Origin: a virus
Reading direction: 5' to 3' (one strand)
IMG/VR virus record: IMGVR_UViG_3300032087_004567
DNA length: 64,000 nucleotides
A program made the position numbers and the translations under genes. Position 1 is the stretch's first letter, and every line of letters starts with the position of its first letter. A model generated the notes under the pieces. The model was given only the letters and a program-made list of their open reading frames with translations, did no database searches and had not been told where the DNA came from. Positions 2,714-62,168 of the stretch are shown one piece after another.

Positions 2714-2715
2714 TT

Positions 2716-3249
2716 ATGAATATTTTTATATTAGATCTTGATATGGAAGAATGTGCAAAGGCTATGGTCGATCGACATATAGTTAAGATGCCTACTGAAT
2801 CATTACAGCTTTTAAGTACATCGCATAGAATGTTAGATGGTAATATGTACACCACTTGGAATAAACGTGGTGCTAAGATGACAAAATATTATCTTAATGA
2901 TGGTAGAGAAGATATTATAGCTAAAGACTGTCATCATAAACATCCGTGTCAGATATGGCTACAAAAATCACCTCGTAATTACGATTACTTATTCAGACTT
3001 ACTAAAGTAATGTGTAAAGAATATACATTTAGATATGGTAGGGTTCATGGTGTTGAAAAACGTTTAGATGATATAAAATCTCCACCACGTAATATTGGTA
3101 AGGATCCTTTTACATTACCACCTCAAGCTATGGATGAAGAATATAGACGTAACGACTTAGTAGAAGGTTATAAGAACTATTATAGAAAGGCTAAAAAACA
3201 TCTAGCAGCATGGAAAAATAGACCAGTACCTGCTTGGTATAATATATGA
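2716..3249 (+). CDS. pyrimidine-dimer DNA glycosylase / endonuclease V-like protein
   Basis: MNIFILD...DRHIVKMPTESLQLLST, HxxHPC, EYTFRYGRVH and PQAM motifs of this phage family. Confidence 0.75.
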   Translation: MNIFILDLDMEECAKAMVDRHIVKMPTESLQLLSTSHRMLDGNMYTTWNKRGAKMTKYYLNDGREDIIAKDCHHKHPCQIWLQKSPRNYDYLFRLTKVMCKEYTFRYGRVHGVEKRLDDIKSPPRNIGKDPFTLPPQAMDEEYRRNDLVEGYKNYYRKAKKHLAAWKNRPVPAWYNI

Positions 3250-4961
3250 TAATATTTGAATCGGTTAAATGGAAAAATCTATTAAGTACTGGTAACTCAT
3301 TTACTAAAATAGATATAACTAAAAATAAAAATACTCTAATGATTGGATCTAATGGTGCTGGTAAAAGTACTATATTAGATGCATTATGTTTTGGTTTATA
3401 TAATAAACCTTTTAGAAAGATACCTAAAGGTCATTTAGTAAATATGATCAATCAAAAGAACTTAGAGGTAGAAATAGAGTTTAGAGTGGGTAAAAGAAAT
3501 TATCGTATAGTTAGAGGTATAAAACCTAATAAGTTTGAAATATACTTAGATGATAATCTTATAGATCAAAATGCTGATGCAAAAGAGTATCAAGAATACT
3601 TAGAGAAGAATATACTAAAACTTAATCATAAATCGTTTTGTCAAATAGTTGTACTAGGTTCAGCTAACTTTCAACCTTTTATGCAATTATCTGTTACCAA
3701 TAGAAGACAAATAATAGAAGATTTATTAGACATACAAATATTTTCATTAATGAATAATATTTTAAAAACTAAGTTAAGTGATAATAAGTTAGAACTTAAT
3801 GAGGCTAGTTTTAATATTAGAAATAATGCAGATAAAATTACAATGCTTAAAGAGCATTTAGAAAAGCTTAAACAGAATAATGAAGATCTTATTAAACAAA
3901 AAGAAGATAAGATAGATGAGTATAGAAAGCAAATAGCTACTAATAATAAAACTATAAAAGATCTTACTGTTGATCTAAAAGCAAAACTAGATAGTATCTC
4001 TGATGGTGAAAAGCTTAAACTAAAAGATAAAGAAGTATGGAAATCTATACAAACACTTTCTGCTAAAAAGAGTCAGATAGAATCAGAAATAGAATTCTTT
4101 ACTGATCATAATGATTGTCCTACTTGTAAGCAGGGTATAGATCATGAACATAAACAAAGTATAGTTTCAAAAGATAACGAAAAGATAGAAGAGATAACTG
4201 AAATAGAAAAAAAGCTTGACGATACTCATGATAAGATAGCTGCTAGGTTTAAAGAAATAAATGCTATTAAAGTAAAGATAGATGAGCTTAATAAGACCAT
4301 ATCAAATTGCACAGTACAAATTGAGACTTATAACAATTTTATAACTGACCTGACTACTGAGATAACTAAGATAAAAAAGGATTCTAAAGATGGTGAGGAT
4401 AATTCTGAAGAGTTAAAGAAGTATAAAAACGATCTTAAAAAAGCTATAGAGAATAAAGAAACGTTAGCAAAGGATAAACAGTTATTAGATATTGCAGTTC
4501 ATATATTACGTGATAGTGGTATAAAGACAAAGATTATAAAGCAGTATGTACCAGTAATGAATAAATTAATAAATAAGTATCTCGCTGCATTAGACTTCTT
4601 TGTTAATTTTAACCTTAATGAAAATTTTGAAGAGACAATAAAGTCTAGACATAGAGATAATTTTGTATATGAAAATTTTTCTCAAGGTGAGAAACTTAGA
4701 ATTGATTTAGCGTTATTATTTACTTGGAGGGCAATAGCTAAGTTAAGAAATAGTGCTAATACTAATTTATTAATTATGGATGAAATATTAGATTCATCTT
4801 TAGATATGGATGGTACTGATGAGTTTCTAAAGTTGATACAACAGTTGACTGAAGAAACAAATGTCTTTATAATATCCCATAAAGGTGATCAATTATTTGA
4901 AAAATTTGATAATGTAATGAGATTTGAGAAATATAAAAACTTTTCGAGGATGATAGTATGA
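3246..4961 (+). CDS. gp46: recombination ATPase gp46 (Rad50/SbcC-like)
   Basis: Walker A GSNGAGKST, CPTC zinc hook in the coiled coil, FSQGE signature, LIMDE Walker B. Confidence 0.96.
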   Translation: MIIFESVKWKNLLSTGNSFTKIDITKNKNTLMIGSNGAGKSTILDALCFGLYNKPFRKIPKGHLVNMINQKNLEVEIEFRVGKRNYRIVRGIKPNKFEIYLDDNLIDQNADAKEYQEYLEKNILKLNHKSFCQIVVLGSANFQPFMQLSVTNRRQIIEDLLDIQIFSLMNNILKTKLSDNKLELNEASFNIRNNADKITMLKEHLEKLKQNNEDLIKQKEDKIDEYRKQIATNNKTIKDLTVDLKAKLDSISDGEKLKLKDKEVWKSIQTLSAKKSQIESEIEFFTDHNDCPTCKQGIDHEHKQSIVSKDNEKIEEITEIEKKLDDTHDKIAARFKEINAIKVKIDELNKTISNCTVQIETYNNFITDLTTEITKIKKDSKDGEDNSEELKKYKNDLKKAIENKETLAKDKQLLDIAVHILRDSGIKTKIIKQYVPVMNKLINKYLAALDFFVNFNLNENFEETIKSRHRDNFVYENFSQGEKLRIDLALLFTWRAIAKLRNSANTNLLIMDEILDSSLDMDGTDEFLKLIQQLTEETNVFIISHKGDQLFEKFDNVMRFEKYKNFSRMIV

Positions 4962-5479
4962 TATATGATTTAGTACCTGAAGATGATCCTATACTTCAAA
5001 GAAGACTAGATAACTTTAACGTAGCAGAACCTCCGATAGACCCAAGAGAGCTTGCAAATAATCTAATAGAGACTATGGTGGAGCATAATGGACTAGGTAT
5101 ATCAGCTAATCAATGTGGTTTACCTTATAGGGTGTTCGTAATGAGATCAATAGAACCATTAGTAGTAATTAATCCAAGAATAGTTGATACATCTACTAAA
5201 GAAGTACTAATGGAAGAAGGTTGTATATCTTTTCCTAATCTGGTTATAAAAATTAAAAGACCAGAAAAAATTAAAGTACGATATGTTACCTTAAAAGAAT
5301 TTGAACCGATGCAGTTAGATACAATAACTGAAACTTTTCATGGAATGTCTGCAAGGGTATTCCAACACGAACTCGATCATTTAAATGGAATTGACTATAG
5401 AACTAGAGCAAATAGTATTCATTTAGATAGAGGAATGAGAAAGCGAAAGAGACTAGAGAGACAATCTAGAAGTCTGTGA
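4958..5479 (+). CDS. def: peptide deformylase
   Basis: GLGISANQCG, EGCIS and QHELDHLNG motifs. Confidence 0.95.
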   Translation: MIYDLVPEDDPILQRRLDNFNVAEPPIDPRELANNLIETMVEHNGLGISANQCGLPYRVFVMRSIEPLVVINPRIVDTSTKEVLMEEGCISFPNLVIKIKRPEKIKVRYVTLKEFEPMQLDTITETFHGMSARVFQHELDHLNGIDYRTRANSIHLDRGMRKRKRLERQSRSL

Positions 5480-5504
5480 CCTTCCACAATAACTAGGAGA
5501 ATAA

Positions 5505-6353
5505 ATGCAAAAAATAAAAGTAGCTGAAATATTTTATAGTATTCAGGGTGAAGGCTTGTACGCTGGTGTACCTAGTATATTTTTAAGAACCTTTGGATGT
5601 AATTTTACATGTTCAGGTTTTGGTATGCCAAGAGGACAAGTTAGCGATGAAAGAAATAAAATACCTATTACTGAGACAAGTACATATGATAATTTACCAT
5701 TAGTAAAGACCGGTTGTGATTCATATGCATCTTGGGATCCAAGATTTAAAAATCTATCTAAGTTCTATACATTAGAAGAGATAGAAGATATTATTATAGA
5801 TTTATTACCGTATAAGGAATGGAGAGATGAGCATCTTATCATTACTGGTGGTGAACCATTACTTGGTTGGCAAAAGGCATATATTAATCTCTTACAGAGA
5901 GATAAGATGAAGAAATGTAAACATATTACTTTTGAAACTAATGGCACGCAAGAATTAAGAGATGAGTTTAGTGAGTTTTTAAATAACTGGTCTGTTGATA
6001 ATGAAACTAACTTTACATTTAGTGTAAGTACTAAACTAAGCCCTTCTGGTGAAAAATTTGAAGATGCAGTTAAACCAGAAGTTATATCTAGTTACAGTAT
6101 AGGTAATCAATTATTTTTTAAATTTGTAATTGATAGTGACGAAGATGTAGAAGAGATAGAAAAAGCACTTAAGGTCTATGATCTAAAAGAAGTAACCGGT
6201 CATGAACCTATAGTATATGTTATGCCTGTTGGTGGCACGTCAGATTTATACGATGTCAACAGAAGAAAGGTTGCAGAAATAGCTATGAAAAAAGGTTGGA
6301 GATTTAGTCCACGTCTGCAGGTTGATATTTGGAAAAACGCATGGGGTACTTAA
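5505..6353 (+). CDS. queE: 7-carboxy-7-deazaguanine synthase (radical SAM)
   Basis: EIFYSIQGEG, FLRTFGCNFTC...GCDS, ITGGEPLL, FETNG, SPRLQV; adjacent to queD and folE. Confidence 0.9.
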   Translation: MQKIKVAEIFYSIQGEGLYAGVPSIFLRTFGCNFTCSGFGMPRGQVSDERNKIPITETSTYDNLPLVKTGCDSYASWDPRFKNLSKFYTLEEIEDIIIDLLPYKEWRDEHLIITGGEPLLGWQKAYINLLQRDKMKKCKHITFETNGTQELRDEFSEFLNNWSVDNETNFTFSVSTKLSPSGEKFEDAVKPEVISSYSIGNQLFFKFVIDSDEDVEEIEKALKVYDLKEVTGHEPIVYVMPVGGTSDLYDVNRRKVAEIAMKKGWRFSPRLQVDIWKNAWGT

Positions 6354-6354
6354 T

Positions 6355-6849
6355 ATGAATTATTCGTATAGTATGATGGCTAGAGCAATACATGGTATTT
6401 GTAGTAATGTAGAAGCATCTAAAATAAAATTTGATTATATTGTAGGATTATCAAGAGGTGGGTTAGTACCTGCGGTAAGATTATCACATTGTTTAAATTT
6501 AGATCTTGTACCATTAAGATGGTCATTACGTGATCATAAGGCAAGAGATGTAAGAATACTTTCTAATATTCTAAGCGATCTAACTGAAGGTAAAAAAATA
6601 TTAATGGTAGATGATCTTATTGATTCAGGTGAATCAATTGATGTAATGTTACATCAGATGGCAAGAATAAGAGGTCAATTACAATTTAATTTATTTGATA
6701 AAACTTGGGAAAATAATTTAGATATTGCAGTATTATTATTTAATACTGATCAAAAGAAAGTAAGACGTCCTAGGTTTGCATATGAAAATTTTAGTAGAAA
6801 AGAACGTCCTGAATGGATTAATTTTTGGTGGGAGGCAAAAGCAGCATGA
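6355..6849 (+). CDS. type I phosphoribosyltransferase (Gpt/Hpt-like)
   Basis: VGLSRGGLVPA, PRPP-binding loop ILMVDDLIDSGES, C-terminal WINFWWE. ATG at 6355 follows the queE stop. Confidence 0.85.
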   Translation: MNYSYSMMARAIHGICSNVEASKIKFDYIVGLSRGGLVPAVRLSHCLNLDLVPLRWSLRDHKARDVRILSNILSDLTEGKKILMVDDLIDSGESIDVMLHQMARIRGQLQFNLFDKTWENNLDIAVLLFNTDQKKVRRPRFAYENFSRKERPEWINFWWEAKAA

Positions 6850-7343
6850 AATGGTATAGTACAAAAACGTATGGTAATGATCAAGGATTAAGTTGTTGTT
6901 TTAGACAATGGAAAGCTGATCATAGTCATTGTTCGTTAATACATGGTTATAGTTTAGGTTTTAAATTAGTATTTGAATGCGATAAATTAGATGCTAGAAA
7001 CTGGGTAATGGACTTTGGAGGATTAAAAGATCTTAAAGAATGGTTAAAGTATATGTTCGATCATACTTTGGTTATAGCTGAAAGTGATCCAAAGTATGAT
7101 GAGTTAGAAAGATTAGGTAAGATAGGTCTTGCTGATGTTAGAGTAGTAGATGCAGTTGGAGCTGAAAAGTTTGCAGAATTAGTCTTTCGTAAGATGACTG
7201 AAATATTAGATAAAGCAAGAGAGGATGGTAAGTTACTTAATCCTTCAGTTAAGGTGAAGAGTGTAGAATGTTTTGAGCATGGTGCTAATTCTGCAATCTT
7301 TGAAGAAGATAATGTAGAAAGTGAATTTGGGACTTTATTATGA
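6846..7343 (+). CDS. queD: 6-carboxy-5,6,7,8-tetrahydropterin synthase (QueD/PTPS family)
   Basis: SHCSLIHGY, WVMDFGGLK, FDHTL and EHGANSA motifs; ATGA overlap with the PRTase stop. Confidence 0.9.
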   Translation: MKWYSTKTYGNDQGLSCCFRQWKADHSHCSLIHGYSLGFKLVFECDKLDARNWVMDFGGLKDLKEWLKYMFDHTLVIAESDPKYDELERLGKIGLADVRVVDAVGAEKFAELVFRKMTEILDKAREDGKLLNPSVKVKSVECFEHGANSAIFEEDNVESEFGTLL

Positions 7344-8023
7344 GTTGCTGGGAAAAGATAACTGAAAAAATGATTAAAGATGGCCATAGATTCTATGCTG
7401 CCGATAATGTATCTAAGTATATTGAACCACATGAAAAAGAAATACTAATTGATGAATGTACTAGAGCGTTTGAGTTTGTTCTTGATAGTTTATTAGTAGA
7501 TAGAAAGAACGATCCTAATAGTCAAGGTACTGCAAGACGATTAGCTAAGATGTATTATAATGAAATATTTGCAGGTAGATATACTCCTACACCTAATGCT
7601 ACTGCATTTCCTAACACTGGTGATGACAAGTATGACGGTATGTTAGTGGTAAGGGCAGAGTTAAGATCTATTTGTTCGCATCATCATCAACCTGTAAAGG
7701 GTGTTGCTTATATTGCAATTATACCTAATGAAAAGTTAATTGGTTTATCTAAGTATGTTAGACTTGCACAACATCTTGCAAGACGTGGTACATTGCAAGA
7801 AGAGTTATGTAATAGAATAGTAAATAGTATTCGTGAGGCTACTGGTTCAGATGATGTAGCTGTTTATATTTCTGCAACACATGGTTGTATGGAAAATAGA
7901 GGTATTAATGCTACTTCATCTCTTACTCAAACTACTAGATTAAGCGGTCAATTCCATGATCCTGATGTTAAGAAAGAGTTCTTTGATAATATTGCACTAC
8001 AGCAATCGTATGGTGAGAAGTAG
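7340..8023 (+). CDS. folE: GTP cyclohydrolase I
   Basis: TARRLAKMY, SICSHH, IGLSK, LQEEL and HGCMENRG motifs. Confidence 0.95.
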   Translation: MSCWEKITEKMIKDGHRFYAADNVSKYIEPHEKEILIDECTRAFEFVLDSLLVDRKNDPNSQGTARRLAKMYYNEIFAGRYTPTPNATAFPNTGDDKYDGMLVVRAELRSICSHHHQPVKGVAYIAIIPNEKLIGLSKYVRLAQHLARRGTLQEELCNRIVNSIREATGSDDVAVYISATHGCMENRGINATSSLTQTTRLSGQFHDPDVKKEFFDNIALQQSYGEK

Positions 8024-8052
8024 TTGATTTAATTTAGGAAATATATTATAAT
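8024..8052 (+). promoter_or_regulatory. early sigma70-type promoter
   Basis: TTGATT-N17-TATAAT in a tagTTGATTtaattt context repeated across the window. Confidence 0.8.
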
Positions 8053-8074
8053 ATTATTTTATTATGGAGGTAAT

Positions 8075-8335
8075 ATGATTAGTCAACTAAGTTCAAAAGC
8101 TAGAGTTAAACAAGATGGCATTGGTGAAGATACAATGCATACATTATGGGATTATCATGCTAGTGCTCATACAGATGAATATAGAGTTATGTGTAAAGAT
8201 GCTATTAAGAAGTCATCTGGTAAAAATGAGACTAAATCTAACGCATGTGATGCATTAGATAAAATGACATCTAAAACTAAAATGATGCAGTTTGTAACTA
8301 ATTATTTTCTTAAAGGTGAAGGAAGAGGTGTCTAA
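8075..8335 (+). CDS. hypothetical protein
   Basis: ORF with GGAGG RBS directly after the promoter. Confidence 0.7.
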   Translation: MISQLSSKARVKQDGIGEDTMHTLWDYHASAHTDEYRVMCKDAIKKSSGKNETKSNACDALDKMTSKTKMMQFVTNYFLKGEGRGV

Positions 8336-8688
8336 TGCCTAAGATGTATTTTGCAGAGTTTACCAAAGACAATAAAGTATTTCAAAAGTTTGGTCATACA
8401 GGTCATAACGATGCAATGATAAGACTTAATAATATTACAAAAGAATATCCGCAGTTTAAGGCAAGAGTCTTAGCTGCGGCATATCATAATGATATTACAA
8501 AGTGTCAAGGGGCAGAAGAAGCTTTTAAATGTATGTACCCTAAGAATTTTTGGTTAGAAGAAAAAATATCTGGTATTACCGAATGTGTTGTATTAGATCA
8601 ATCGACTAGAAATTCTGTTATTCAAGCAGTGAGAAAATTGAATACTAAATTTAAGGAGGAGTGTTTTGGCAATCAAGATAGCGCATGA
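8335..8688 (+). CDS. hypothetical protein, possible T5orf172/GIY-YIG-like nuclease domain
   Basis: N-terminal MYFAEF...FQKFGHT...RL pattern and a late conserved E resemble GIY-YIG variants; weak. Confidence 0.4.
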   Translation: MPKMYFAEFTKDNKVFQKFGHTGHNDAMIRLNNITKEYPQFKARVLAAAYHNDITKCQGAEEAFKCMYPKNFWLEEKISGITECVVLDQSTRNSVIQAVRKLNTKFKEECFGNQDSA

Positions 8689-9508
8689 ATGTCCCTTAGG
8701 AGTTTTTTATAGAGTTCAAGAACTTACTGATTATGATTATGCATTAGTTCATTTATTTGAAGAGTCAGAAGAATACTATAATAAATTTCTTATGGCTAAA
8801 ATGGCAGGTAGAGAAATTATTTTAGATAATTCTATATTTGAATTAGGTGAGGCATTTGATGCAGAGAAGTATGCATATTGGATAGAAAAGCTTAAACCTG
8901 ATTGGTATATAGTACCTGATAGTTTAGAGAATAAAAATGAAACTATTTCTAACTATGAAAACTGGATTAAGAATTATAATGACTTACCTGGTAAAAAGAT
9001 TGGAGTTGTACAAGGTAAAAATTATGATGAGGCAGTTGATTGTTATAAATATTTTTCTGTAGCGCCATATTGTGAAAAGGTAGCAATATCATTTGACTAT
9101 TCTTTTTACGAGACTATGAATCATAACTTAGAGTTTCCAACTAAGTATCATGCATGGTGTTTAGGTAGACAAGTATTTTTAGATAGGTTAATTAGAGATG
9201 ATTGGATTAATTATAAGAGACCTCATCATTTACTTGGTTGTAGTTTACCTCAAGAGTTTTTATACTATAAAACGAACGATAAGTTTAGATTTATAGAATC
9301 TTTAGATACTTCTAATCCAGTAGTTGCAGGATTAAAGGGGATAGTTTATAATGATACTATGGGTTTAGATGATAAACCTTCAGAAAAATTATATACGATG
9401 ATTGAGAGTGATGTGAGTAAAAATACGCTCAGTCTTATTGAAAAAAATATAGATGCATTTAGGAGAATATGTAATGAACTGGGTAGCGCTTTTCAGTCAA
9501 ACGGGTAG
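8666..9508 (+). CDS. divergent TGT-fold deazaguanine transglycosylase-like protein (DpdA/DpdA3-like)
   Basis: Ordered TGT-like motifs IILDNSIFE, IVPD, IGVVQG, HHLLG, SLDTS; embedded in the que cluster; TTG start with AGGAGG RBS. Confidence 0.7.
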   Translation: MAIKIAHECPLGVFYRVQELTDYDYALVHLFEESEEYYNKFLMAKMAGREIILDNSIFELGEAFDAEKYAYWIEKLKPDWYIVPDSLENKNETISNYENWIKNYNDLPGKKIGVVQGKNYDEAVDCYKYFSVAPYCEKVAISFDYSFYETMNHNLEFPTKYHAWCLGRQVFLDRLIRDDWINYKRPHHLLGCSLPQEFLYYKTNDKFRFIESLDTSNPVVAGLKGIVYNDTMGLDDKPSEKLYTMIESDVSKNTLSLIEKNIDAFRRICNELGSAFQSNG

Positions 9509-9998
9509 TGAAATAGATACTCTAAGTAGAAATCTAAATCAAAAACCTGATCAAATACTTACTAACAATAAAGACTATGATGGACCTTTAGAAGTTACAA
9601 AAGGTACACATAAAGAATTAATGGATATGTTAGAGGAGTTAGATCCTTATACTTTAGTTACTTTACATGGTTATTTAAGAATAATACCTGAACGTATTAC
9701 CTCCCATTGTAAAAGAATGTATAACGGTCATCCTGCTCTTGCTAATGTATATCCTGAACTAAGAGGATTAGATCCACAAAAGAGAACATGGCAGAATATA
9801 GAAAGATATGCTGCGGTTGGATCTATTGTTCATCATGTAATACCCGAGGTAGATGCAGGGGACGTAGTTGCATATGAATCTATTGTAATACCACATAGTG
9901 ACTATACAGAAGAGGCGTTATATGGTGATTTAAGAACATGTTCAATAGTATCATGGAAGAAATTTTTAATGGAGTACTTTAATGAAAATCGGCATTAG
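9474..9998 (+). CDS. PurN-fold formyltransferase, candidate preQ1 N-formyltransferase (DpdN-like)
   Basis: ALFSQTGS, HGYLRII, YNGHPAL, GSIVHHV and EVDAGDV correspond to GART motifs; AGGAG RBS; lies between the DpdA-like gene and queF. Confidence 0.78.
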   Translation: MNWVALFSQTGSEIDTLSRNLNQKPDQILTNNKDYDGPLEVTKGTHKELMDMLEELDPYTLVTLHGYLRIIPERITSHCKRMYNGHPALANVYPELRGLDPQKRTWQNIERYAAVGSIVHHVIPEVDAGDVVAYESIVIPHSDYTEEALYGDLRTCSIVSWKKFLMEYFNENRH

Positions 9999-10503
9999 TG
10001 GTGTGCATGGTAGTGGTAAGACTACTTTACTTAATAATGAAATGTTTAGAAGTTGCACTAAATGCGATGAAGTAACTAGAACGGTTAAAAAAGAGTATAA
10101 CGTTGAGATAAACGAACAAGGTAATGATGTTACTCAGAAGTTAATTATGAGAGAACATATGGCAAATCTTATACTCAATAATAATATGGTAACTGATAGA
10201 ACTGTTATTGATTGTATGGCCTATACCCATTACCTTTATGATAATAAACAAGTAAGTAAAGATACGTTTAATTATATTTCTATGTGCTATAGTAAACTAG
10301 TTAAGAAATATGATCTTATATTTTATCTTGTACCAGTTGAAGATAAAATTGCCGATGATGGTGTTAGATCTACTAATGTAGAATTTAGAGATAAAATGAT
10401 AGAGTATTTTGAAAAGTATATTAATCATTTTAATGTAGTAAAGGTTAAAGGTGATTATAAAGAACGTATAAGGTTTTGTAGAGAAACTTTATGCTTATTT
10501 TAA
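9982..10503 (+). CDS. P-loop nucleotide kinase-like protein (AAA_28/NadR-type)
   Basis: GISGVHGSGKTT Walker A, DRTVID, YDLIFYL, DDGVR. Confidence 0.75.
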   Translation: MKIGISGVHGSGKTTLLNNEMFRSCTKCDEVTRTVKKEYNVEINEQGNDVTQKLIMREHMANLILNNNMVTDRTVIDCMAYTHYLYDNKQVSKDTFNYISMCYSKLVKKYDLIFYLVPVEDKIADDGVRSTNVEFRDKMIEYFEKYINHFNVVKVKGDYKERIRFCRETLCLF

Positions 10504-10512
10504 AGGAGAAGA

Positions 10513-11442
10513 ATGGATAATCAAAAGAAACTTAACGAACTAGTAAGTGTTCATTTAGGTAAAGCCGGGGATGGTTCAGTAGTTAAACCTTATGTAACCC
10601 CTGATGAAGTTGATCCTAGTTTACTTGTAGGTGTACCTAGACAATTAAATAGAACGCAATATGATTTAGATGATGGCAATCTACCTTTCGTCGGTTACGA
10701 CGTATGGAACGGCTATGAATTTTCAACTTTACTTACTAGTGGGTTTCCTGTATCGGGATGGGTTAAGTTTAGCTATAGTTCAAGTACACCTTTTATTGTA
10801 GAAAGTAAATCGGTTAAACTTTATCTTAACTCTTTTAATATGGCAAAGATAATTGAGACTGAAAAAGATATAGAAGTTATAGAGACTAAAATTAAGAATG
10901 ATATAGGTGAGGTAGTAAAAGGTGATGTTGACGTTAGAGTGTTTATTGATCCTAAGGAAACAAAAGAACCTTTTAAGAAACCTTTCTATAGTATAGAAAA
11001 ATTAGTTGATGTAGAAAATATAAAGTTTGATCGTTATAATGAATCTGAAGACATACTAAAAATCATACCCATGGGTGAATGTCCGTTGAAAGGATATTAT
11101 AGATCCTATTCGTTACGTTCTAATTGTAGGGTAACTAATCAACCTGATTGGGGTGATGTATACATTTATATCAAAGGTGCTATGACGGTAAGTTTAGAGT
11201 CATTATTACAATATATTGTTTCTATGAGAAGAGAGAATCATTTTCATGAGGAAATATGTGAATGTATCTATAAACGATTACATGATCTATTGTCACCTAT
11301 TGAGTTATTTGTTGGTTGTTTATATACTAGACGTGGTGGGATTGATATTAATCCTATTAGGGCAACATCTATGGAAACTGTTAAGGCAGTAAGTAATATT
11401 CATAATGTAAATAGACCATCAACTAAGACTGCAAGACAATGA
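10513..11442 (+). CDS. queF: NADPH-dependent 7-cyano-7-deazaguanine (preQ0) reductase, two-domain type
   Basis: QueF motif VESKSVKLYLNSF, catalytic RSNCRVTNQPDWG, FHEE, YTRRGGIDINP. Confidence 0.93.
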   Translation: MDNQKKLNELVSVHLGKAGDGSVVKPYVTPDEVDPSLLVGVPRQLNRTQYDLDDGNLPFVGYDVWNGYEFSTLLTSGFPVSGWVKFSYSSSTPFIVESKSVKLYLNSFNMAKIIETEKDIEVIETKIKNDIGEVVKGDVDVRVFIDPKETKEPFKKPFYSIEKLVDVENIKFDRYNESEDILKIIPMGECPLKGYYRSYSLRSNCRVTNQPDWGDVYIYIKGAMTVSLESLLQYIVSMRRENHFHEEICECIYKRLHDLLSPIELFVGCLYTRRGGIDINPIRATSMETVKAVSNIHNVNRPSTKTARQ

Positions 11443-11717
11443 TTGAATACAAATATAATGAACCTGAACATTTAGATAGTTTAAAGAAGTATATTGATAA
11501 TACCTATAATCAACATTATGCAAAAGGTAGTATACAGGCAACAGAATATATTATTGATTCGGGTTTAGGTAAAGGTTTTTGTATTGGGAATGTAATTAAG
11601 TATGCCTCCCGATATGGAAAGAAAGAGGGTAAGAATAAGAATGATTTATATAAAATCGTTCATTACATCATAATGGAACTAAATAGTTTAGATAAGGAAC
11701 AAAATGAATCTAAGTGA
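11439..11717 (+). CDS. DUF3310/SaV-like protein (T7 gp1.7 nucleotide-kinase-related family)
   Basis: QHY...IQATEYI...GFCIGNVIKYASRYGKKEG...DLYKIVHY. Confidence 0.8.
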   Translation: MIEYKYNEPEHLDSLKKYIDNTYNQHYAKGSIQATEYIIDSGLGKGFCIGNVIKYASRYGKKEGKNKNDLYKIVHYIIMELNSLDKEQNESK

Positions 11718-12459
11718 GGCTTTAAACGTATTACCGGACACCGATAACAAAGTTCTATCTGTACATTCCGGAGGTATGGATTCTTCTATAATGACTATGT
11801 TGTTGGTAGAAAAATATGGTAAAGACAAAGTGGAGACTGTTTCTTATCGGTACGGTCAGAAACAGGCTGAAGAACTAGTAAGAGCGCAGGAGTTCTGCAG
11901 AACGTTAGGTATCTTAAGACATGAACTAGATCTAACCATCTTAGGTTATATTGCAAGAGAAATCTCCGCTAACATTGTAGAGAGTCATATTAAGATGCCA
12001 ACCATTAAAGAGGTACTAGGAGATCCTCAGCCTAAGACCTACGTACCGTTTAGAAACTTAATTCTACTTTCTATGACTCTTGCCCAGGCCGAGGCAAGAA
12101 ACTGTAATTATATATTTACCGGATTACAAGTACATGATGAATATGGCTACTGGGATACATCACAGAAGTTTGTTGATAGTATAAATGCTGTTGCCGATCA
12201 AAATAGAACGCATAAGGTAAAAATTATTGCACCCTTTAGTCATTTATCTAAGTATGATGAAATAAAATTATGCCAGGAGATGGGTAAAGAAGAGTTATTA
12301 GAACATACTCTAACGTGTTATAATCCTGATTCAGAAGGAAGATCATGCGGTGTATGTCCTTCTTGTTCTGAACGTATTGCTAATTTTATTAAAGCAGGGG
12401 TAAGAGATCCAATAGTGTATGTAAAAGATTTGCCGTGGACACAATTATTAAATAAATAG
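11704..12459 (+). CDS. queC: 7-cyano-7-deazaguanine synthase
   Basis: SGGMDS PP-loop, YGQK, YVPFRN, TCY...CGVCPSCSER zinc site. Confidence 0.94.
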   Translation: MNLSEALNVLPDTDNKVLSVHSGGMDSSIMTMLLVEKYGKDKVETVSYRYGQKQAEELVRAQEFCRTLGILRHELDLTILGYIAREISANIVESHIKMPTIKEVLGDPQPKTYVPFRNLILLSMTLAQAEARNCNYIFTGLQVHDEYGYWDTSQKFVDSINAVADQNRTHKVKIIAPFSHLSKYDEIKLCQEMGKEELLEHTLTCYNPDSEGRSCGVCPSCSERIANFIKAGVRDPIVYVKDLPWTQLLNK

Positions 12460-12463
12460 TTAT

Positions 12464-12997
12464 ATGGCAAAATATAATCATAGAACTATACATACAGTAT
12501 ATCTTGATATGGATGGGGTTCTATGTGATTTCGATTCATATTACAGATCAATATACGGGGTAAATTGCAGAGATGACGATAATGAAGATAATTGGTACGA
12601 GTTTGTCAATAATCAAGGATTTCAAGAGCTCGATAGAATGCCAGGTTACGATGATCTGTTTTCAATGCTCAACGAGCTGTATGTGGATATCGAGATTCTT
12701 TCCTGTATTACTAGTAGGAAGAATAATAAAGAGGTTGCAAAACAAAAAGTAGAATGGTTATTTAGAAATAGTTTAGAAAATAATGTAATTAACTTTACTA
12801 TAACAAAACAAGGTAAAGGTAATTATGCTAATCCAAATGTATTGCTGATTGATGATTCTGATGAATGTATTTCAGCATTTAAACAAAGTGGGGGGTATGC
12901 TTTAAAGTATACCGGTATTGATAAGCTAAAATTTGAGATTGAATATTTATTAAGTGAAGATATATTATGTGTGCGATCGTTGGGTCATTTCAGTTAG
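12464..12997 (+). CDS. HAD-family 5'(3')-deoxyribonucleotidase
   Basis: YLDMDGVLCDF, KVEWL and LLIDD motifs. Confidence 0.8.
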   Translation: MAKYNHRTIHTVYLDMDGVLCDFDSYYRSIYGVNCRDDDNEDNWYEFVNNQGFQELDRMPGYDDLFSMLNELYVDIEILSCITSRKNNKEVAKQKVEWLFRNSLENNVINFTITKQGKGNYANPNVLLIDDSDECISAFKQSGGYALKYTGIDKLKFEIEYLLSEDILCVRSLGHFS

Positions 12998-13590
12998 ATA
13001 AACTTAAAGAACTAATCAAGTTAAATTCCTATAGAGGTTCTCATTCATACTCTATATCGTTTTATGATATAGAAAATGGTACGTTGAATAATGTTATAAA
13101 AGACTTTGGTGAATTAGATGTTGATACTATAAGAATACCTTATGGTGATTATTGTATAGCACATATACAAGCGCCTACAACAACTAAAAAAGATAAAGAT
13201 TCAATTCATCCGGCAACTGTCGATGATTGTTATCTATGGCATAATGGTATAATAAAAGAAATGACAATTGAGAAGTTTAGTAAAGAGTATAATACTAAAT
13301 GGGATACTAAGTTACTACTTGAAGGAATTAAAAAAGTAGGTTATAATATACTCAATGAAATGGATGGTACGTTTAGTTGTTTAATGTATAAAGATAAGAA
13401 TTTATTATTATTTCGTAATGAAATATCTCCGATGTTTATAGATGATGATTTTAATATTTCATCAACGAAGTTTGATAATAGTAGAGAAACAGATCCTAAT
13501 AAAGTTATACAAATGGATCTAAAGAATAAAAGTCTACAAACAGTAGATAGATTTAAAACGTATTTTAACCCTTATTACTTTGGAGATTAA
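12967..13590 (+). CDS. class II (Ntn) glutamine amidotransferase-like protein
   Basis: N-terminal MCAIVG nucleophile, RG, IHP, LWHNGII, WDT. Confidence 0.8.
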   Translation: MCAIVGSFQLDKLKELIKLNSYRGSHSYSISFYDIENGTLNNVIKDFGELDVDTIRIPYGDYCIAHIQAPTTTKKDKDSIHPATVDDCYLWHNGIIKEMTIEKFSKEYNTKWDTKLLLEGIKKVGYNILNEMDGTFSCLMYKDKNLLLFRNEISPMFIDDDFNISSTKFDNSRETDPNKVIQMDLKNKSLQTVDRFKTYFNPYYFGD

Positions 13591-13939
13591 TGTGAGTAAT
13601 TTTACAAGAATAAAAGAATGGTCTGATGAAAGACTTATTACCCAACAAGAACCTGATCGTAATGGTTTTATTTCTATGATAGTAGAAGAGTGTGGTGAGT
13701 TTTTAGCAGCTGAATCTACAGAAGGTAGAATAGATGCAATGGCCGATATGATTGTATTTTGTTATGGTGAAATAGCAAAGTATGGATATGATGGTGATAA
13801 AGTTATGGATGAGGTAATTAAAGAGATAAGTTCTCGTACTGGTTCATATAGTCCTGAAACTAAGAAGTGGCAAAAGGATAAATCTCCAGAAGCACAAGCA
13901 AAGTGGTATTCTGCTAATTTTAATAATTGTAAGTTATAA
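13580..13939 (+). CDS. MazG/all-alpha NTP pyrophosphatase-like protein
   Basis: VEECGEF...IDAMADMIV acidic EExxE...DxxxD pattern; start codon uncertain. Confidence 0.65.
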   Translation: MEINVSNFTRIKEWSDERLITQQEPDRNGFISMIVEECGEFLAAESTEGRIDAMADMIVFCYGEIAKYGYDGDKVMDEVIKEISSRTGSYSPETKKWQKDKSPEAQAKWYSANFNNCKL

Positions 13940-13948: not shown

Positions 13949-14812
13949 GTGACTATGAAAATAGAAATTAATATTAATGAGCTGAGAAAGGCAAAGCTCT
14001 TTGTAGCTACTCCTATGTATGGTGGTCAATGTGCAGGGTTGTATACAAAGTCTATTGCCGATCTATCAGCATTATGTGCAAAGTATGGCTTGCAATTGCA
14101 ACTGTATTATTTGTTTAATGAGTCGTTGATTACTAGAGCTAGAAACTACTGCTGTGATGAGTTTCTAAGAAGTGGTGCAACACATTTACTATTCTTAGAT
14201 TCTGATATTGGTTTTAATCCGCATGATGTTATTGCTATGTTAACGTTAATGTTACAGAATCCTGGTAAGTTTGACATTATGGGTGCGCCTTATCCTAAGA
14301 AATGTATCTCATGGGAGAAGATTTTACAGGCGGTTAATAAAGGTGTTGCTGATGAGAATCCTAACGAGTTAGATAACTTTGTTGGTGATTTTGTATTTAA
14401 TCCTAAAGGTGGTGCACAAACTATACCATTAGGTGAACCTGCCGAGGTAATGGAGCTAGGTACTGGCTTTATGATGATACAGAGGGAAGTATTTAAGAAG
14501 TATGACGAGAAGTTTCCTGAGTTAAAATATAAACCTGATCATGTTCGTACTGAGCATTTTGATGGTACAAGAGAAATTATGGCATACTTTGATTGTATTA
14601 TCGATCCTAAGTCTAAGAGGTATCTATCTGAAGATTATATGTTCTGTTATAATGCTGAAAAGGCTGGTATTAGAACTTGGTTATGTCCTTGGATGAAAAC
14701 TACCCATGTTGGTTCTTATATGTTTGGTGGAAGCTTAAGCCATCTTGCAACTGTGGGGGCATCTGCTACTGCCGATCCTGGTAAACTTAAAAAGAAAGGT
14801 GCCATAAAATGA
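13949..14812 (+). CDS. GT-A fold glycosyltransferase-like protein
   Basis: ATPMYGG, NESLITRARN, FLDSD (DxD), GTGFMMI, LSEDYMFC. Confidence 0.7.
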   Translation: MTMKIEININELRKAKLFVATPMYGGQCAGLYTKSIADLSALCAKYGLQLQLYYLFNESLITRARNYCCDEFLRSGATHLLFLDSDIGFNPHDVIAMLTLMLQNPGKFDIMGAPYPKKCISWEKILQAVNKGVADENPNELDNFVGDFVFNPKGGAQTIPLGEPAEVMELGTGFMMIQREVFKKYDEKFPELKYKPDHVRTEHFDGTREIMAYFDCIIDPKSKRYLSEDYMFCYNAEKAGIRTWLCPWMKTTHVGSYMFGGSLSHLATVGASATADPGKLKKKGAIK

Positions 14813-15495
14813 TGAAACTAGAAGGACGTACGCTTCAGATACTTAAAAATTATGCTACTATAAATCCTTCTTTGCAGTTTAAAGAAGGGGATAGTAATGG
14901 TAGTGTTTTAGTTACTGTATCTCCTAATAAGACTGTAATGGCTAAAGCTAAAGTTACAGAGTCTATTCCATCACCTTTTGCAATTTATGATCTATCTAGA
15001 TTTTTAGGTGTATTATCTTTATTTGATAAACCTAATATAAAGTTAGAAGATAAGTTTTTGGTTGTTAACTCTGGTAATAACTCAGGTAGAACAGTAAAGT
15101 ATACTTATGCCGATCCTAAACTTATAGTTGCACCTGGTGATAAAGAAATTAAACTACCTGATCCAGAAATTAAATTTCAACTTAGTAGTGATGTGTTACT
15201 AAGTGTATTAAGGGCTATGTCTGTTATGGGACTACCCGAACTATCTATTACTGGTGAAGATGGTAATATGTTTATTGAGGCGATAGATTCTAAGAATCCA
15301 TCTTCTGATAATTATAGAGTACCTGTTGGTAGTACTAATGATGTATTTAAAATGATATTTTTAGCTGAGAATATAAAAATTCTTCCTGAAGATTATGATA
15401 TAGAAATCTCTTCTAAAGGTATCGCTCACTTTAAAGGAAAGGATATTGAATATTGGATAGCTACTGAAAGTAGTTCAACTTATACAAAAGGTTAA
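14809..15495 (+). CDS. gp45: DNA polymerase sliding clamp gp45
   Basis: ILKNYATINPS, FAIYDLSRFL, YWIATE; precedes gp44. Confidence 0.93.
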   Translation: MMKLEGRTLQILKNYATINPSLQFKEGDSNGSVLVTVSPNKTVMAKAKVTESIPSPFAIYDLSRFLGVLSLFDKPNIKLEDKFLVVNSGNNSGRTVKYTYADPKLIVAPGDKEIKLPDPEIKFQLSSDVLLSVLRAMSVMGLPELSITGEDGNMFIEAIDSKNPSSDNYRVPVGSTNDVFKMIFLAENIKILPEDYDIEISSKGIAHFKGKDIEYWIATESSSTYTKG

Positions 15496-15501
15496 TATAT
15501 T

Positions 15502-16443
15502 ATGCTAAATGATGAAATGCTCTGGGGGCAGAAATATCGCCCTAGAACAGTAAGTGATACGATTTTACCTAACGAATTGAAAGATACTTTTCAAGAGTTT
15601 GTAAATCAAAAGAATGTACCTAATTTACTTTTATCTGGTTCTCCAGGTACTGGTAAAACTACAGCTGCAAAAGCTATGTTAGAAGAAGTAGATTGTGATT
15701 ATATTGTTATTAACGGTAGTTTAAATGGTAATATTGATACGTTAAGAAATGATATAAAGTCATTTGCATCTGCTGTATCTTTATCTGGTGGTAGAAAATA
15801 TGTAATACTAGATGAAGCTGATTATCTAAATCCTAATTCAACTCAACCTGCTCTTCGTAACTTTATGGAAGAGTATTCTAAGAATTGTGGTTTTATTCTA
15901 ACGTGTAACTTTAAGAATAGAATTATAGAACCTCTACATTCAAGATGTGGTGTTGTTGAATTTAAAATACCTAAACAAGATAAACCTAAACTTGCTAAAA
16001 GTTTCTTTCAAAGAGTTAAAGAAATATTAGATCAAGAAAATATTGAGTATGATCAAAAGGTAGTTGCCTCTTTAGTACAGAAACATTTTCCAGACTTCAG
16101 AAGAACTATAAATGAACTGCAAAGATATTCTGCTACCGGTAAAATAGATTCAGGTATACTATCTAATCATAAAGAAGAATCGTTGAAGATGGTTATGGGT
16201 TTATTGAAAGAGAAAAACTTTACTGAGGTTAGAAAATGGGTAGGTGAAAATTCTGATGTTGATACTACTACATTTTTTAGAAGTTTATATGATACAGCAT
16301 CTGAATTTTTAAAGCCTGCATCTATACCTCAGTTAGTTTTACTATTAGCTGATTATCAATATAAGGCTGCATTTGTAGCTGATCCTGAAATTAATATTAT
16401 GGCCTGCTTAACTGAAATAATGGTTGAAGCAGAATTTAAATAG
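15502..16443 (+). CDS. gp44: clamp loader large subunit gp44
   Basis: KYRP, GSPGTGKTT, ILDEAD, PLHSRC, FPDFRR. Confidence 0.95.
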   Translation: MLNDEMLWGQKYRPRTVSDTILPNELKDTFQEFVNQKNVPNLLLSGSPGTGKTTAAKAMLEEVDCDYIVINGSLNGNIDTLRNDIKSFASAVSLSGGRKYVILDEADYLNPNSTQPALRNFMEEYSKNCGFILTCNFKNRIIEPLHSRCGVVEFKIPKQDKPKLAKSFFQRVKEILDQENIEYDQKVVASLVQKHFPDFRRTINELQRYSATGKIDSGILSNHKEESLKMVMGLLKEKNFTEVRKWVGENSDVDTTTFFRSLYDTASEFLKPASIPQLVLLLADYQYKAAFVADPEINIMACLTEIMVEAEFK

Positions 16444-17021
16444 TGGGTAAAGTAGGAGTATTAATTTCTGGTACTGGATCTAATCTTAAAGCTCTTGTGG
16501 ATGCTTTAGTCCCAATAGCTTGGGTTGGATCCAACAATCCAGATGCAAAAGGTTTGGATTTTGCTCATAAGAAGAACATCCATACCTTTGTGGAACCAAA
16601 GATTGCCGAACTTGAAAAGATCTTAGATCATTTTATGAAAGAGGTTGAGTTTTTGGTTCTTGCAGGTTTTATGAGAGTACTATCTCCTGAATTTGTGAAG
16701 AAGTATCCCAAAAGGATTATAAATATTCATCCAAGTTTGTTACCTGCATTCAAAGGTAAGGATGCTATTCGTAGAGCATATGATTATGGTTGTAAAGTTA
16801 TGGGTGTTACTATCCATTATGTTAATGAGAAAGTAGATGAAGGTGAGATCATTGCACAAGAACCTCTTTGGATTGTGAATACAATTTTAAATCATAATGC
16901 ACAACATACTAATCAAGTACGATATACTTACAAAGAAGTCGAACAACAAGTTCATAAGCTAGAACATAGTATGTATCACAAAGTCGTTCGAGATATGTTA
17001 GGTATTGGTGGTTGGGGATAA
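16443..17021 (+). CDS. purN: phosphoribosylglycinamide formyltransferase
   Basis: LISGTGSNL, VLAGFMRVL, INIHPSLLP, GVTIHYV, VDEGEII. Confidence 0.92.
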   Translation: MGKVGVLISGTGSNLKALVDALVPIAWVGSNNPDAKGLDFAHKKNIHTFVEPKIAELEKILDHFMKEVEFLVLAGFMRVLSPEFVKKYPKRIINIHPSLLPAFKGKDAIRRAYDYGCKVMGVTIHYVNEKVDEGEIIAQEPLWIVNTILNHNAQHTNQVRYTYKEVEQQVHKLEHSMYHKVVRDMLGIGGWG

Positions 17022-18640: not shown

Positions 18641-18698
18641 GTAAATGCCCATTTTGGGGTTTACTTATTTTAAACTTGCTTAAAAGGAGAAAACTATG
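18641..18698 (+). promoter_or_regulatory. ROSE-like RNA thermometer in the hsp20 5' UTR
   Basis: Hairpin at 18641-18664, then CUUGCU-UAAA-AGGAG, in which the U(U/C)GCU motif pairs with the SD with a bulged G. Confidence 0.6.
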
Positions 18699-19205
18699 AC
18701 GTTCGACGACGTATTTCATTTTGGTTCTAAAGACTTAGATAAATTCTTTATAGGTTCTAATAACCCGTTTACAAGAGTAAACAAAATATATGATGAGGTG
18801 CAAAGATCATCTTATCCTCCATATAATATTAAGAGACTTGGCGATGACAAGTTCTCAATTGAATTAGCTGTTGCAGGGTTTACCCAATCAGATATTGATA
18901 TTGAGGTAGTACCTGAAGAAAACAAATTAGTAGTAAGTGGTAAGAGCGATGATAACAGTTCTGATTACTTACATAGAGGTATAGCTAATAGGGCGTTCAC
19001 AAGATCATTTGCATTAGATGAACATGTTGAAGTAAGATCTGCAGATCTATCTAACGGTATGTTGATAATTAACTTAGAGAGAATAGTTCCAGAGCATAAA
19101 AAACCTAGAAAGATTAAGGTCAACGATGCCATAGAGCACTCCTCCAAGCAGCTACTTACGGAGGATAAAAATGCAGAAATCAAAACTAAAGAGAAGGTTG
19201 CGTAA
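18696..19205 (+). CDS. hsp20: small heat-shock protein (Hsp20/IbpA family)
   Basis: SYPPYNI, IELAVAGF, YLHRGIANRAFTRSF, NGML. Confidence 0.95.
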   Translation: MTFDDVFHFGSKDLDKFFIGSNNPFTRVNKIYDEVQRSSYPPYNIKRLGDDKFSIELAVAGFTQSDIDIEVVPEENKLVVSGKSDDNSSDYLHRGIANRAFTRSFALDEHVEVRSADLSNGMLIINLERIVPEHKKPRKIKVNDAIEHSSKQLLTEDKNAEIKTKEKVA

Positions 19206-34770: not shown

Positions 34771-34997
34771 ACTTTATTGTAAGATATAAAAGAATTTATT
34801 TTAAGGACAACAGAGTAGAACATATCGAACAAACCCACTATGCCCACCATCCGGCCGATATATTCATGTCTATGGACACTGAATTTAGAAGAAAAGACTA
34901 TGTGGTAGAAAAAGTAGAGGTCATCAATGTCGATAGAGAATCATTTGGTAACCTTGAGAAACTAAAACAAATTGATATACCCAGAAGAGGACACTAA
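34767..34997 (+). CDS. hypothetical protein
   Basis: Coupled ORF. Confidence 0.55.
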   Translation: MNFIVRYKRIYFKDNRVEHIEQTHYAHHPADIFMSMDTEFRRKDYVVEKVEVINVDRESFGNLEKLKQIDIPRRGH

Positions 34998-35758
34998 TGC
35001 ATACCTATTATTATGAACCAATTTATAGGGGGAAGGTGCGTGATGTATATTCACTTACCAACAACTATCTTCTTATTGATACTACCGATAGAATATCAGT
35101 CTTCGATAAAGTATTAGATCTACCTTGTAATGGAAGAGGTAAGGTGTTAAATGATATAACAGCCTTTTGGTCTAAATATCTTTATGACATTATTCCTAAT
35201 CATTATGTGCGTCATACTGATAATCAAATGGTTGTTAGACGTACCACCCCCATAAAGATAGAATTTGTGGTACGTAAATGTATCTTTGGTTCTTTTTATG
35301 AACAGCATAAGGATAAGTTCTTTGAAGGTGAAATGTTAAAAAATCCTATACTTACACCTACATCTAAATCAGACGTAAAAGACGTTCCATTAACAGAAGA
35401 ACAATGCCGTTCTATATCGCGGCATTATGATTATTGTAAAGATATATCCATTAAGTTATTCAATAAAGCCTATGATTATCTATTTGATAGAGGCATGATA
35501 TTATGTGATACCAAGTTTGAATTTGGATTACAACGCAATGAAGTCCTCCTAATTGATGAATATTTGACACCAGATAGTTCCAGGTTAATCAAAAAATCAC
35601 AATATGAAAAAGGAAGATTTGTATTCAAGGATAAACAAATATTAAGAGATATAGTAAAGAATAAAGAACCATTAAATAAAGAAATAATGGATTATTTATT
35701 CTATATTTACGATAATACAAAGAATATTATTATTAATGGTAAAGTTAAAAAACTATGA
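34997..35758 (+). CDS. purC: SAICAR synthetase
   Basis: RGKVRDVY, TDRISVFD, IEFVVR, TPTSK, LCDTKFEFG, LIDEYLTPDSSR, DKQ. Confidence 0.92.
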   Translation: MHTYYYEPIYRGKVRDVYSLTNNYLLIDTTDRISVFDKVLDLPCNGRGKVLNDITAFWSKYLYDIIPNHYVRHTDNQMVVRRTTPIKIEFVVRKCIFGSFYEQHKDKFFEGEMLKNPILTPTSKSDVKDVPLTEEQCRSISRHYDYCKDISIKLFNKAYDYLFDRGMILCDTKFEFGLQRNEVLLIDEYLTPDSSRLIKKSQYEKGRFVFKDKQILRDIVKNKEPLNKEIMDYLFYIYDNTKNIIINGKVKKL

Positions 35759-62155: not shown

Positions 62156-62168
62156 AAATTATAATAGG

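Follow-up and report, generated by a model that had tools for sequence, protein, structure and literature searches.

Introduction

According to Cui, Hutinet et al. (2023), virion DNA of Flavobacterium phage immuto contains no deoxyguanosine (dG) and, per million nucleotides, 345,000 residues of fdPreQ1, the deoxynucleoside of formyl-preQ1 (7-(formylamino)methyl-7-deazaguanine). Complete replacement of G is also characteristic of Campylobacter phage CP220 and Cellulophaga phage phiST, whose DNA contains the deoxynucleosides of 7-amido-7-deazaguanine (dADG) and of 7-deazaguanine without a C7 substituent (dDG), respectively; all three phages encode the transglycosylase-like protein DpdA3. The ADG nucleoside was detected in CP220-infected cells (Cui et al. 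2023). A modified-dGTP route had been proposed for Campylobacter phages, as noted by Hutinet 2019, and the idea was set aside once DpdA3 was recognised (Cui et al. 2023). In the literature searched, no treatment of DpdA3 at the nucleotide level was found, either before or since 2023.

Here we describe a 7-deazaguanine island occupying positions 5505-13939 of a 64,000-nucleotide stretch of DNA from an uncultured phage (IMG/VR record IMGVR_UViG_3300032087_004567), the whole of which is referred to below as the window. Judged by its genes, the island is a diverged and enlarged member of the known immuto-type fdPreQ1 system, placed on a T4-like backbone; that this phage's own DNA is modified by such a system is predicted from the genes alone. 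Comparison with related loci indicated that DpdA3 and a nucleotide kinase form the smallest conserved unit, to which the formyltransferase DpdN and the reductase QueF are joined according to the base made. We tentatively propose, at somewhat less than an even chance, that DpdA3 is not a DNA transglycosylase but the first enzyme of the tRNA-guanine transglycosylase (TGT) fold to exchange bases at the level of a free deoxynucleotide, be it dGMP or deoxyguanosine, and that with a dNTP pyrophosphatase and a dedicated kinase it constitutes a pre-replicative pathway to dADG, dDG and fdPreQ1 genomes.

The island compared with immuto

The island consists of 15 tightly packed + strand genes, which overlap or abut each other and lie a short way 5' of gp45 and gp44 (14809-16443). 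Each gene named in the original prediction was recovered at its place on the + strand from the list of open reading frames (ORFs) and from Pfam, PHROG and NCBIfam searches. The prediction of a formyl-preQ1 module, here of the immuto fdPreQ1 type (DpdA3, DpdN and the full preQ1 pathway), was likewise upheld by gene content, orthology and synteny. Immuto is the nearest characterised system, and at the DNA level immuto phages were the only cultured relatives. The genes around DpdA3 are the following.

8666-9508, + strand: DpdA3, a minimal TGT-fold guanine transglycosylase of 280 aa (identified by identity to immuto and CP220 DpdA3 and by fold)
9453-9998, + strand: DpdN, a divergent PurN-like formyltransferase, predicted preQ1 N-formylase (PF00551, E 5e-13)
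9982-10503, + strand: P-loop nucleoside/nucleotide kinase, below called KIN (PF13521 AAA_28; phrog_2107)
10513-11442, + strand: QueF, bimodular preQ0 reductase (PF14819 and PF14489; NCBIfam QueF 1.9e-66)
11439-11717, + strand: DUF3310 protein of 92 aa (PF11753, 1.1e-12; PHROG 'nucleotide kinase' families)

With immuto the island shares DpdA3 (54.6% identical), DpdN (37%), the kinase (33.5%), QueF, FolE, QueD, QueE and a phosphoribosyltransferase (PRTase), as well as the core order DpdA3-DpdN-kinase-QueF; the immuto island also has an NTP pyrophosphohydrolase. The surroundings differ: a family A polymerase and GroES/EL lie beside the immuto island, whereas the window is T4-like (gp45/gp44, family B polymerase, Mre11/Rad50). 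The window differs further in having QueC inside the island, an additional DUF3310 gene, a HAD-family protein, an N-terminal nucleophile (Ntn) type protein, a MazG-like protein of a different type and a second PurN. The island is composed of two submodules, one for base synthesis and guanine handling on the FolE side, the other the conserved core DpdA3-DpdN-kinase-QueF.

DpdN (37% identical to its syntenic immuto counterpart, gp67) keeps the Asn-His-Asp triad of PurN and scored only 46 bits with the PurN equivalog model, whose cut-off is passed by the second PurN copy of the window. In two metagenomic sequences (P0161 and P0180, 447 aa) DpdA3 and DpdN are fused, and the domain that comes after the barrel is a formyltransferase with 36-37% identity to the DpdN of the window. 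The N-terminal loop of DpdN, S-Q-T-G-S-E, aligns with the S-G-x-G-S-N loop of PurN, so that a PurN-type SxTGS loop is conserved. In PurN this loop presumably binds the ribose-5-phosphate of glycinamide ribonucleotide (GAR), which we take as a lead only; from the alignment, the loop of DpdN hints at a phosphate-bearing substrate.

DpdA3 is a shortened TGT-fold protein

No Pfam match was found for DpdA3. With its immuto counterpart it shares 54.6% identity over 96% of the length, and with CP220 gp056 39%. The AlphaFold2 model (pLDDT 95) is a TGT-type (beta/alpha)8 barrel (Foldseek probability 1.0, TM 0.62-0.64), and VIA-align gave Z scores of 17-18 against TGT, ArcTGT and DpdA (7ui4), with root mean square deviations of 3.1-3.9 over 234-244 residues. 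The motifs LDNS (D54) and DTSNP (D214) were invariant in 33 DpdA3 sequences. When equivalents of Asp102 and Asp280 of TGT were sought, the DTSNP region aligned weakly with SIDSTTP of DpdA 7ui4.

The 9g-type DpdA (DpdA1) and bacterial DpdA/DpdB, which modify DNA post-replicatively and partially, share with the DpdA3 systems a TGT-fold transglycosylase and preQ0 pathway genes. DpdA3 differs from TGT and DpdA in being ~100-130 residues shorter, and the 33-sequence alignment contained no invariant cysteine; neither a conserved cysteine cluster nor a zinc-binding cysteine/histidine subdomain was found. The acidity of DpdA3 (median isoelectric point (pI) 5.2, net charge -12) was considered as an argument against action on DNA and dropped, as the DNA-acting 9g DpdA is also acidic (pI 5.6, net charge -8).

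DpdA3 is abundant, with more than 4000 metagenome homologues and more than 580 IMG/VR loci. (A single-sequence query gave no IMG/VR relatives, and alignment-based queries were used instead.) It was the one gene universal among the loci compared, and therefore any route working at the level of the nucleotide pool must pass through it. The original prediction, which envisaged such a route, had left DpdA3 without a role.

A nucleotide kinase accompanies DpdA3

For the comparison all ORFs from the window, immuto, CP220 and 80 further loci were clustered, and a hidden Markov model was built for each recurrent family. The distribution of KIN and DUF3310 was then as follows.

44 loci flanked by 6 kb or more on either side: KIN only in 33, DUF3310 only in 10, both in 1 (the window), neither in 0
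73 loci extending 2.5 kb or more downstream: KIN only in 47, DUF3310 only in 24, both in 2, neither in 0
61 loci of a sample seeded from distant DpdA3: KIN only in 53, DUF3310 only in 7, both in 1, neither in 0

One or the other gene was thus found in 73/73 and 61/61 loci, as against nearly zero in a control set of 17 loci with 9g-type DpdA (KIN 0/17, DUF3310 1/17). This bore out the expectation that nucleotide-type enzymes co-occur with the island in relatives. In all samples KIN and DUF3310 were almost mutually exclusive, and in about 20 loci DUF3310 stood in the exact KIN slot (DpdA3-DpdN-X-QueF). On the DpdA3 tree of the 73 loci the exchange corresponded to about 5 switches, at least 2-3 of which are forced by supported branches. 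That two unrelated small-molecule nucleotide kinases trade places in a single slot points to a nucleotide-kinase step as being required.

Sequence searches against the PDB gave nothing useful for KIN. Its AlphaFold2 model (pLDDT 92) had as top Foldseek matches NadR ribosylnicotinamide kinase, thymidylate kinases and deoxynucleoside kinases; the last included deoxyadenosine, deoxycytidine and multisubstrate deoxynucleoside kinases, and the thymidylate kinases matched about as well. The DUF3310 protein shares the motif KGxCxGNxxKY with T7 gp1.7, which itself carries PF11753 (E 4.5e-23, residues 122-184). T7 gp1.7 has 196 aa, and the protein of the window lacks its N-terminal part of about 120 residues, only the C-terminal domain being alignable. 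By sequence the DUF3310 protein is therefore the nucleotide-kinase domain of gp1.7 standing alone, and kinase activity of the bare domain is predicted.

In CP220, immuto and phiST, whose final bases differ, a small P-loop kinase accompanies DpdA3, directly adjacent to it in CP220 and phiST. In phiST the kinase abutting DpdA3 belongs to a different P-loop family, AAA_18, and neither QueF nor DpdN is present in CP220 and phiST, hence their other final bases. In relatives of phiST CGPG_00067 (115 aa) and the P-loop kinase CGPG_00066 form one fused ORF of 304-322 aa beside DpdA3 (L105:5082-5996; L106-L108:3489-4457), in the order FolE-PRT-dUTPase-like-fusion-DpdA3. Since the kinase is kept whether the base carries a C7 amide, nothing or a formylaminomethyl group, its substrate should be the shared sugar-phosphate part and not the side chain. 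The possibility that the kinase is a DpdB-like ATPase or a DNA-base kinase was rejected because of its small-molecule-kinase fold, its replacement by DUF3310 and its conservation across different C7 groups or none.

A phosphohydrolase lies within 1-3 genes in CP220, where it is an HD-domain protein, and in phiST, where it is MazG. For CP220 gp055 a fusion of a dGTPase-like HD enzyme with a KIN-type kinase was considered. This was abandoned since its P-loop half is unlike KIN and resembles AAA_33/polynucleotide kinase; the combination of HD and P-loop domains presumably also fits an end-healing HD-Pnk, leaving its role ambiguous.

The kinase was also kept in loci reduced to a few genes. Compact cassettes of the type DpdA3-DpdN-KIN-QueF or, without DpdN, DpdA3-KIN-QueF were found in L116, L126, L129, L132, L139, L143, L145 and others, and in L154, L157, L160 and L177. 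In these loci no que-synthesis genes, PRTase or pyrophosphatase lay within 5 kb, and their phages presumably use host preQ0. Seven contigs of about 44 kb from one metagenome (L034, L039, L057, L059, L067, L073, L075) had only DUF3310-x-DpdA3-x-DpdN, with no que genes and no P-loop kinase within 10 kb. The L034-type contigs come from small phages of apparently high G+C.

Genes of the FolE side

The remaining enzymes of the island are the following.

5505-6353, + strand: QueE, 7-carboxy-7-deazaguanine synthase, radical SAM (Pfam Radical_SAM/Fer4_12; clusters with immuto QueE)
6322-6849, + strand: type I purine PRTase of the xanthine/guanine type (PF00156, 2.5e-11)
6825-7343, + strand: QueD, 6-carboxytetrahydropterin synthase (PF01242, 1.7e-14; NCBIfam QueD 3.4e-09)
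7340-8023, + strand: FolE, GTP cyclohydrolase I (PF01227, 4.3e-40)
11704-12459, + strand: QueC, preQ0 synthase (PF06508, 2.4e-49; NCBIfam equivalog cut-off passed)
12464-12997, + strand: HAD-family 5'(3')-deoxyribonucleotidase-like protein, optional (NT5C 1e-4, just under the Pfam cut-off; phrog_2643, 1.7e-26)
12967-13590, + strand: Ntn-type amidohydrolase-like protein (phrog_12378, 5e-52; GATase_6/7 matches weak and under the cut-offs)
13580-13939, + strand: predicted MazG/PRA-PH-like all-alpha (d)NTP pyrophosphohydrolase (PF01503, 1.1e-05, above the cut-off)

The pathway from GTP to preQ1 is complete, FolE, QueD and QueE as well as QueC and QueF all being detected by Pfam and NCBIfam (QueE matched the NCBIfam QueE models with E 9e-18, under their cut-offs). 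PDB searches at the sequence level returned nothing useful for the Ntn protein. Its homologues lie directly beside QueC in KVP40-like Vibrio phages, of which the two analysed, phi-Grn1 and phi-ST2, contain only trace dPreQ1 (Cui et al. 2023, Table 1). On account of this association in phages with so little modified base, the protein was assigned to base synthesis, as a QueC companion that probably supplies ammonia, and not to the set of pool-level enzymes in which it had originally been placed.

The best PDB match of the PRTase was an archaeal purine PRTase (1vdm, 2e-10), followed by xanthine-guanine PRTase (XGPRT) and hypoxanthine PRTase, and its best NCBIfam model was xanthine PRTase. It was present in 26/44 loci and absent from 18/44, and tblastn found none in CP220-type phages. 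Where present, it was always at most one gene away from FolE (directly adjacent in 23/35) and never less than 1.2 kb from DpdA3. In L103, where DpdA is of the 9g type and not DpdA3 and a DUF3310 gene lies nearby, a single ORF (1583-2470) combines a PRTase domain (aa 29-120) with FolE (aa 124-292). Among cultured phages, PRTase homologues were concentrated in those with DpdA3, namely the phiST group and immuto; in phiST the gene adjoins a dNMP-kinase-like gene and is two genes away from ribonucleotide reductase (RNR). The sequence and position of the PRTase fit guanine salvage that would feed GTP to FolE, and not attachment of the base. Such salvage would be of use with any substrate of DpdA3, guanine being set free in stoichiometric amounts in each case.

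The MazG-like protein had a weak PDB match to DR2231. In the same slot most T4-like relatives have a dUTPase-family gene and immuto-like phages a larger PRA-PH-like type, whereas phiST has MazG there and its relatives a dUTPase-like protein. In one locus a MazG gene overlaps DpdA3. On a contig of P0240 (Logan SRR26538807) genes for a 150-aa NUDIX protein, DpdA3 and an AAA_28 kinase form a trio with 4-nt start/stop overlaps. Candidates for a phage-encoded destroyer of the canonical dNTP, a feature of pre-replicative pathways, are the MazG-like gene in the window and dUTPase-like, NUDIX and MazG proteins in relatives. Repeated displacement of unrelated pyrophosphatases in the slot suggests a required dNTP-to-dNMP step. 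The slot was also considered as a dGTPase. Since the nearest solved relatives of its pyrophosphatases are dUTPases, no specificity was assigned.

The HAD gene was found in only 5/44 loci. Given this rarity, and the absence of a pyrophosphatase from 11/31 compact cassettes, the suggestion that the HAD and MazG-like enzymes destroy dGMP and dGTP was not supported in that form. Taken together, the six extra enzymes (PRTase, KIN, DUF3310, HAD, Ntn and MazG-like proteins), which had been seen as a toolkit for a pool-level route, kept that status in one part: the linkage of the kinase is very strong. They are not one kit, as the PRTase is optional, the Ntn protein goes with QueC and the HAD is rare.

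A possible route through free nucleotides

The gene identities, folds and linkage described above are observations, and each substrate beyond the textbook preQ1 pathway is one that we infer. In the proposed route QueE, QueD, FolE and QueC (with the Ntn helper) would supply the free base, starting from GTP. A (d)NTP pyrophosphatase, in the window the MazG-like protein, would convert dGTP to dGMP, on which, as a free deoxynucleotide, DpdA3 would exchange guanine for preQ1, and the released guanine would be returned to GMP by the XGPRT-like PRTase. DpdN would formylate the aminomethyl group, and the modified dNMP would be phosphorylated by the P-loop kinase, the gp1.7-like DUF3310 protein or both. 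Host nucleoside diphosphate kinase would complete the triphosphate, to be incorporated by the T4-type polymerase. The central step, base exchange by DpdA3 on dGMP followed by re-phosphorylation of the product by the kinase, is the reading we lean towards, and we would put it only a little short of an even chance.

The succession of a pyrophosphatase, an enzyme producing a modified dNMP and a kinase is familiar from other phages with complete replacement, namely T4 with hydroxymethylcytosine (gp56 dCTPase, gp42 dCMP hydroxymethylase, gp1 dNMP kinase) and S-2L with MazZ, DatZ and PurZ. The same logic is read here from gene linkage alone. The present system differs in that the proposed middle enzyme is a TGT-fold exchanger and not a ThyA or PurA paralogue, and in that the pyrophosphatase is not universal.

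Alternative explanations

Several observations weigh against exchange on free nucleotides. All characterised TGT-fold enzymes, to our knowledge, use polynucleotide substrates, and the fold of DpdA3 is equally near the DNA preQ0 insertase DpdA (Z 17.4) and the tRNA TGTs. Among the 31 compact cassettes, 11 lacked que-synthesis genes as well as pyrophosphatase and PRTase within 5 kb, so that pyrophosphatase and PRTase track the FolE submodule and not DpdA3. The kinase rule has a possible exception in L113, where a distant DpdA3 is followed (2714-5623) by FolE, Vut_1 (a YhhQ-type queuosine-precursor transporter) and QueD, and no recognisable kinase was found within 9.5 kb. Distant homologues of KIN (25-29% identical) also occur in about 89 Streptomyces phages without a DpdA3 match, where they are annotated as thymidylate kinase and lie in replication modules (e.g. 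L084, phage Coruscant, 66261-66866). The loci compared are phylogenetically clustered, and the 73- and 61-locus samples share some contigs. What the proposed route adds to annotation is drawn throughout from gene context. In the published account insertion by DpdA3 is stated to be post-replicative (Cui et al. 2023). According to that account DpdA3 would be an efficient DNA transglycosylase swapping all G in replicated DNA for preQ1, which DpdN would formylate afterwards (or as the free base beforehand), while kinase, PRTase, pyrophosphatase and HAD would serve nucleotide economy by recycling released guanine through GMP, GDP and GTP to FolE, with housekeeping of the dUTPase type. The TGT/DpdA barrel with its two conserved aspartate motifs agrees with this, as do the polynucleotide substrates of the characterised relatives, the XGPRT-like PRTase beside FolE (fused to it in L103) and the dUTPases as nearest solved relatives of the pyrophosphatases. 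The account leaves unexplained why the kinase is kept at DpdA3 in loci without PRTase or que-synthesis genes (compact cassettes, L034-type contigs), why two unrelated nucleotide kinases exchange in the same slot, and why kinases are scarce at 9g-type DpdA loci. Hosts, moreover, already own a guanylate kinase, and DpdA3 failed in the authors' own E. coli DNA-modification assay (Cui et al. 2023). We regard the published explanation, for DpdA3 and for the accessory genes alike, as less likely than not, somewhat behind the proposed route.

The exchange could also take place one level lower. The pyrophosphatase and HAD would then strip dGTP to deoxyguanosine, DpdA3 would act in the manner of a nucleoside 2'-deoxyribosyltransferase, KIN would serve as deoxynucleoside kinase, the second phosphorylation falling to DUF3310 or host Gmk. 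The fold matches of KIN to NadR and deoxynucleoside kinases, and the joint presence of KIN, DUF3310 and an NT5C-like HAD in the window, speak for this variant; we nevertheless hold it improbable, as the HAD occurs in only 5/44 loci, thymidylate kinases fit KIN about as well, and the mutual exclusion of KIN and DUF3310 suggests that they perform the same step and not successive ones. The least supported explanation, and to our mind a very improbable one, is the route originally predicted, in which the PRTase joins preQ1 or formyl-preQ1 to phosphoribosyl pyrophosphate (PRPP), the product is raised to the diphosphate by a kinase and reduced by the phage RNR, and the analogue enters DNA as a dNTP, DpdA3 being left with clean-up. 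Deazapurine PRTases exist in toyocamycin and tubercidin biosynthesis (ToyH, TubE), the PRTase inside the island is of the 6-oxopurine type, and the window encodes RNR. The concentration of cultured-phage PRTase homologues in DpdA3 phages, and the proximity of the phiST PRTase to dNMP-kinase-like and RNR genes, would also agree with such a route. The PRTase is, however, missing from 18/44 full loci, from CP220-type phages and from compact cassettes, whereas DpdA3 is universal; obligatory coupling of PRTase to deazapurine output, as with ToyH and TubE, was not observed, the gene occurring in 26/44 loci and being tied to FolE. Its fusion to FolE occurs in a non-DpdA3 locus, and a path through ribonucleotides would also load the analogue into the NTP pool. 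Attachment of the base to ribose phosphate by the PRTase is thus poorly compatible with an optional gene bound to FolE.

Other genes of the island and the window

Two conserved genes of the island, absent from the original prediction, lie between FolE and DpdA3, and a third gene absent from it lies outside the island, directly after gp44.

8075-8335, + strand: conserved 86-aa protein (cluster in 22 related loci; no Pfam or PHROG match)
8335-8688, + strand: conserved 117-aa protein (18 loci; overlaps the DpdA3 start by 23 nt; no Pfam or PHROG match)
16443-17021, + strand: second, canonical PurN, GAR transformylase (PF00551, 9e-38; NCBIfam PurN equivalog passed)

For the 117-aa protein the nearest named clusters in the ESM Atlas were T5orf172/MUG113 (GIY-YIG-like), which is a lead only. 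The window was the only one of the 83 loci compared to have two formyltransferases. Together with PurC (34997-35758), the second PurN suggests that the phage boosts the purine or formyl-folate supply.

The T4-like backbone is evident from family B polymerase, UvsX, a gp41-like helicase, Mre11/Rad50, ThyX and RNR, all encoded in the window. Auxiliary genes elsewhere on the backbone (4958-5479, 18696-19205, 57370-58122, 58448-59644, 61490-63962) code for peptide deformylase, HSP20, a class 3 lipase, a D-2-hydroxyacid dehydrogenase, ThyX and the RNR large subunit. A promoter/terminator scan detected no terminator-like sites on the + strand across the island; for promoters the scan was uninformative, promoter-like sites being fewer than in shuffled sequences.

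Implications

The comparison presented here adds to the description of DpdA3 systems the exchange of KIN and DUF3310 in one slot, with counts and a tree, the linkage and fusion of PRTase to FolE, the division into two submodules, the overlapping NUDIX and MazG genes and the 9g-type control. These bear on how DpdA3 phages achieve 100% replacement of G, a question for which the sole paper on DpdA3 asserts post-replicative exchange, yet DpdA3 failed in its assay. The rules of gene context (a kinase always present, two kinases in one slot, PRTase tied to FolE) make the question testable with four or five purified proteins. Should the nucleotide-level route be wrong, the kinase would still need an explanation. 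If it is true, the TGT superfamily would gain a new type of reaction, and DpdA3 phages would offer an enzymatic source of 7-substituted 7-deaza-dGTPs.

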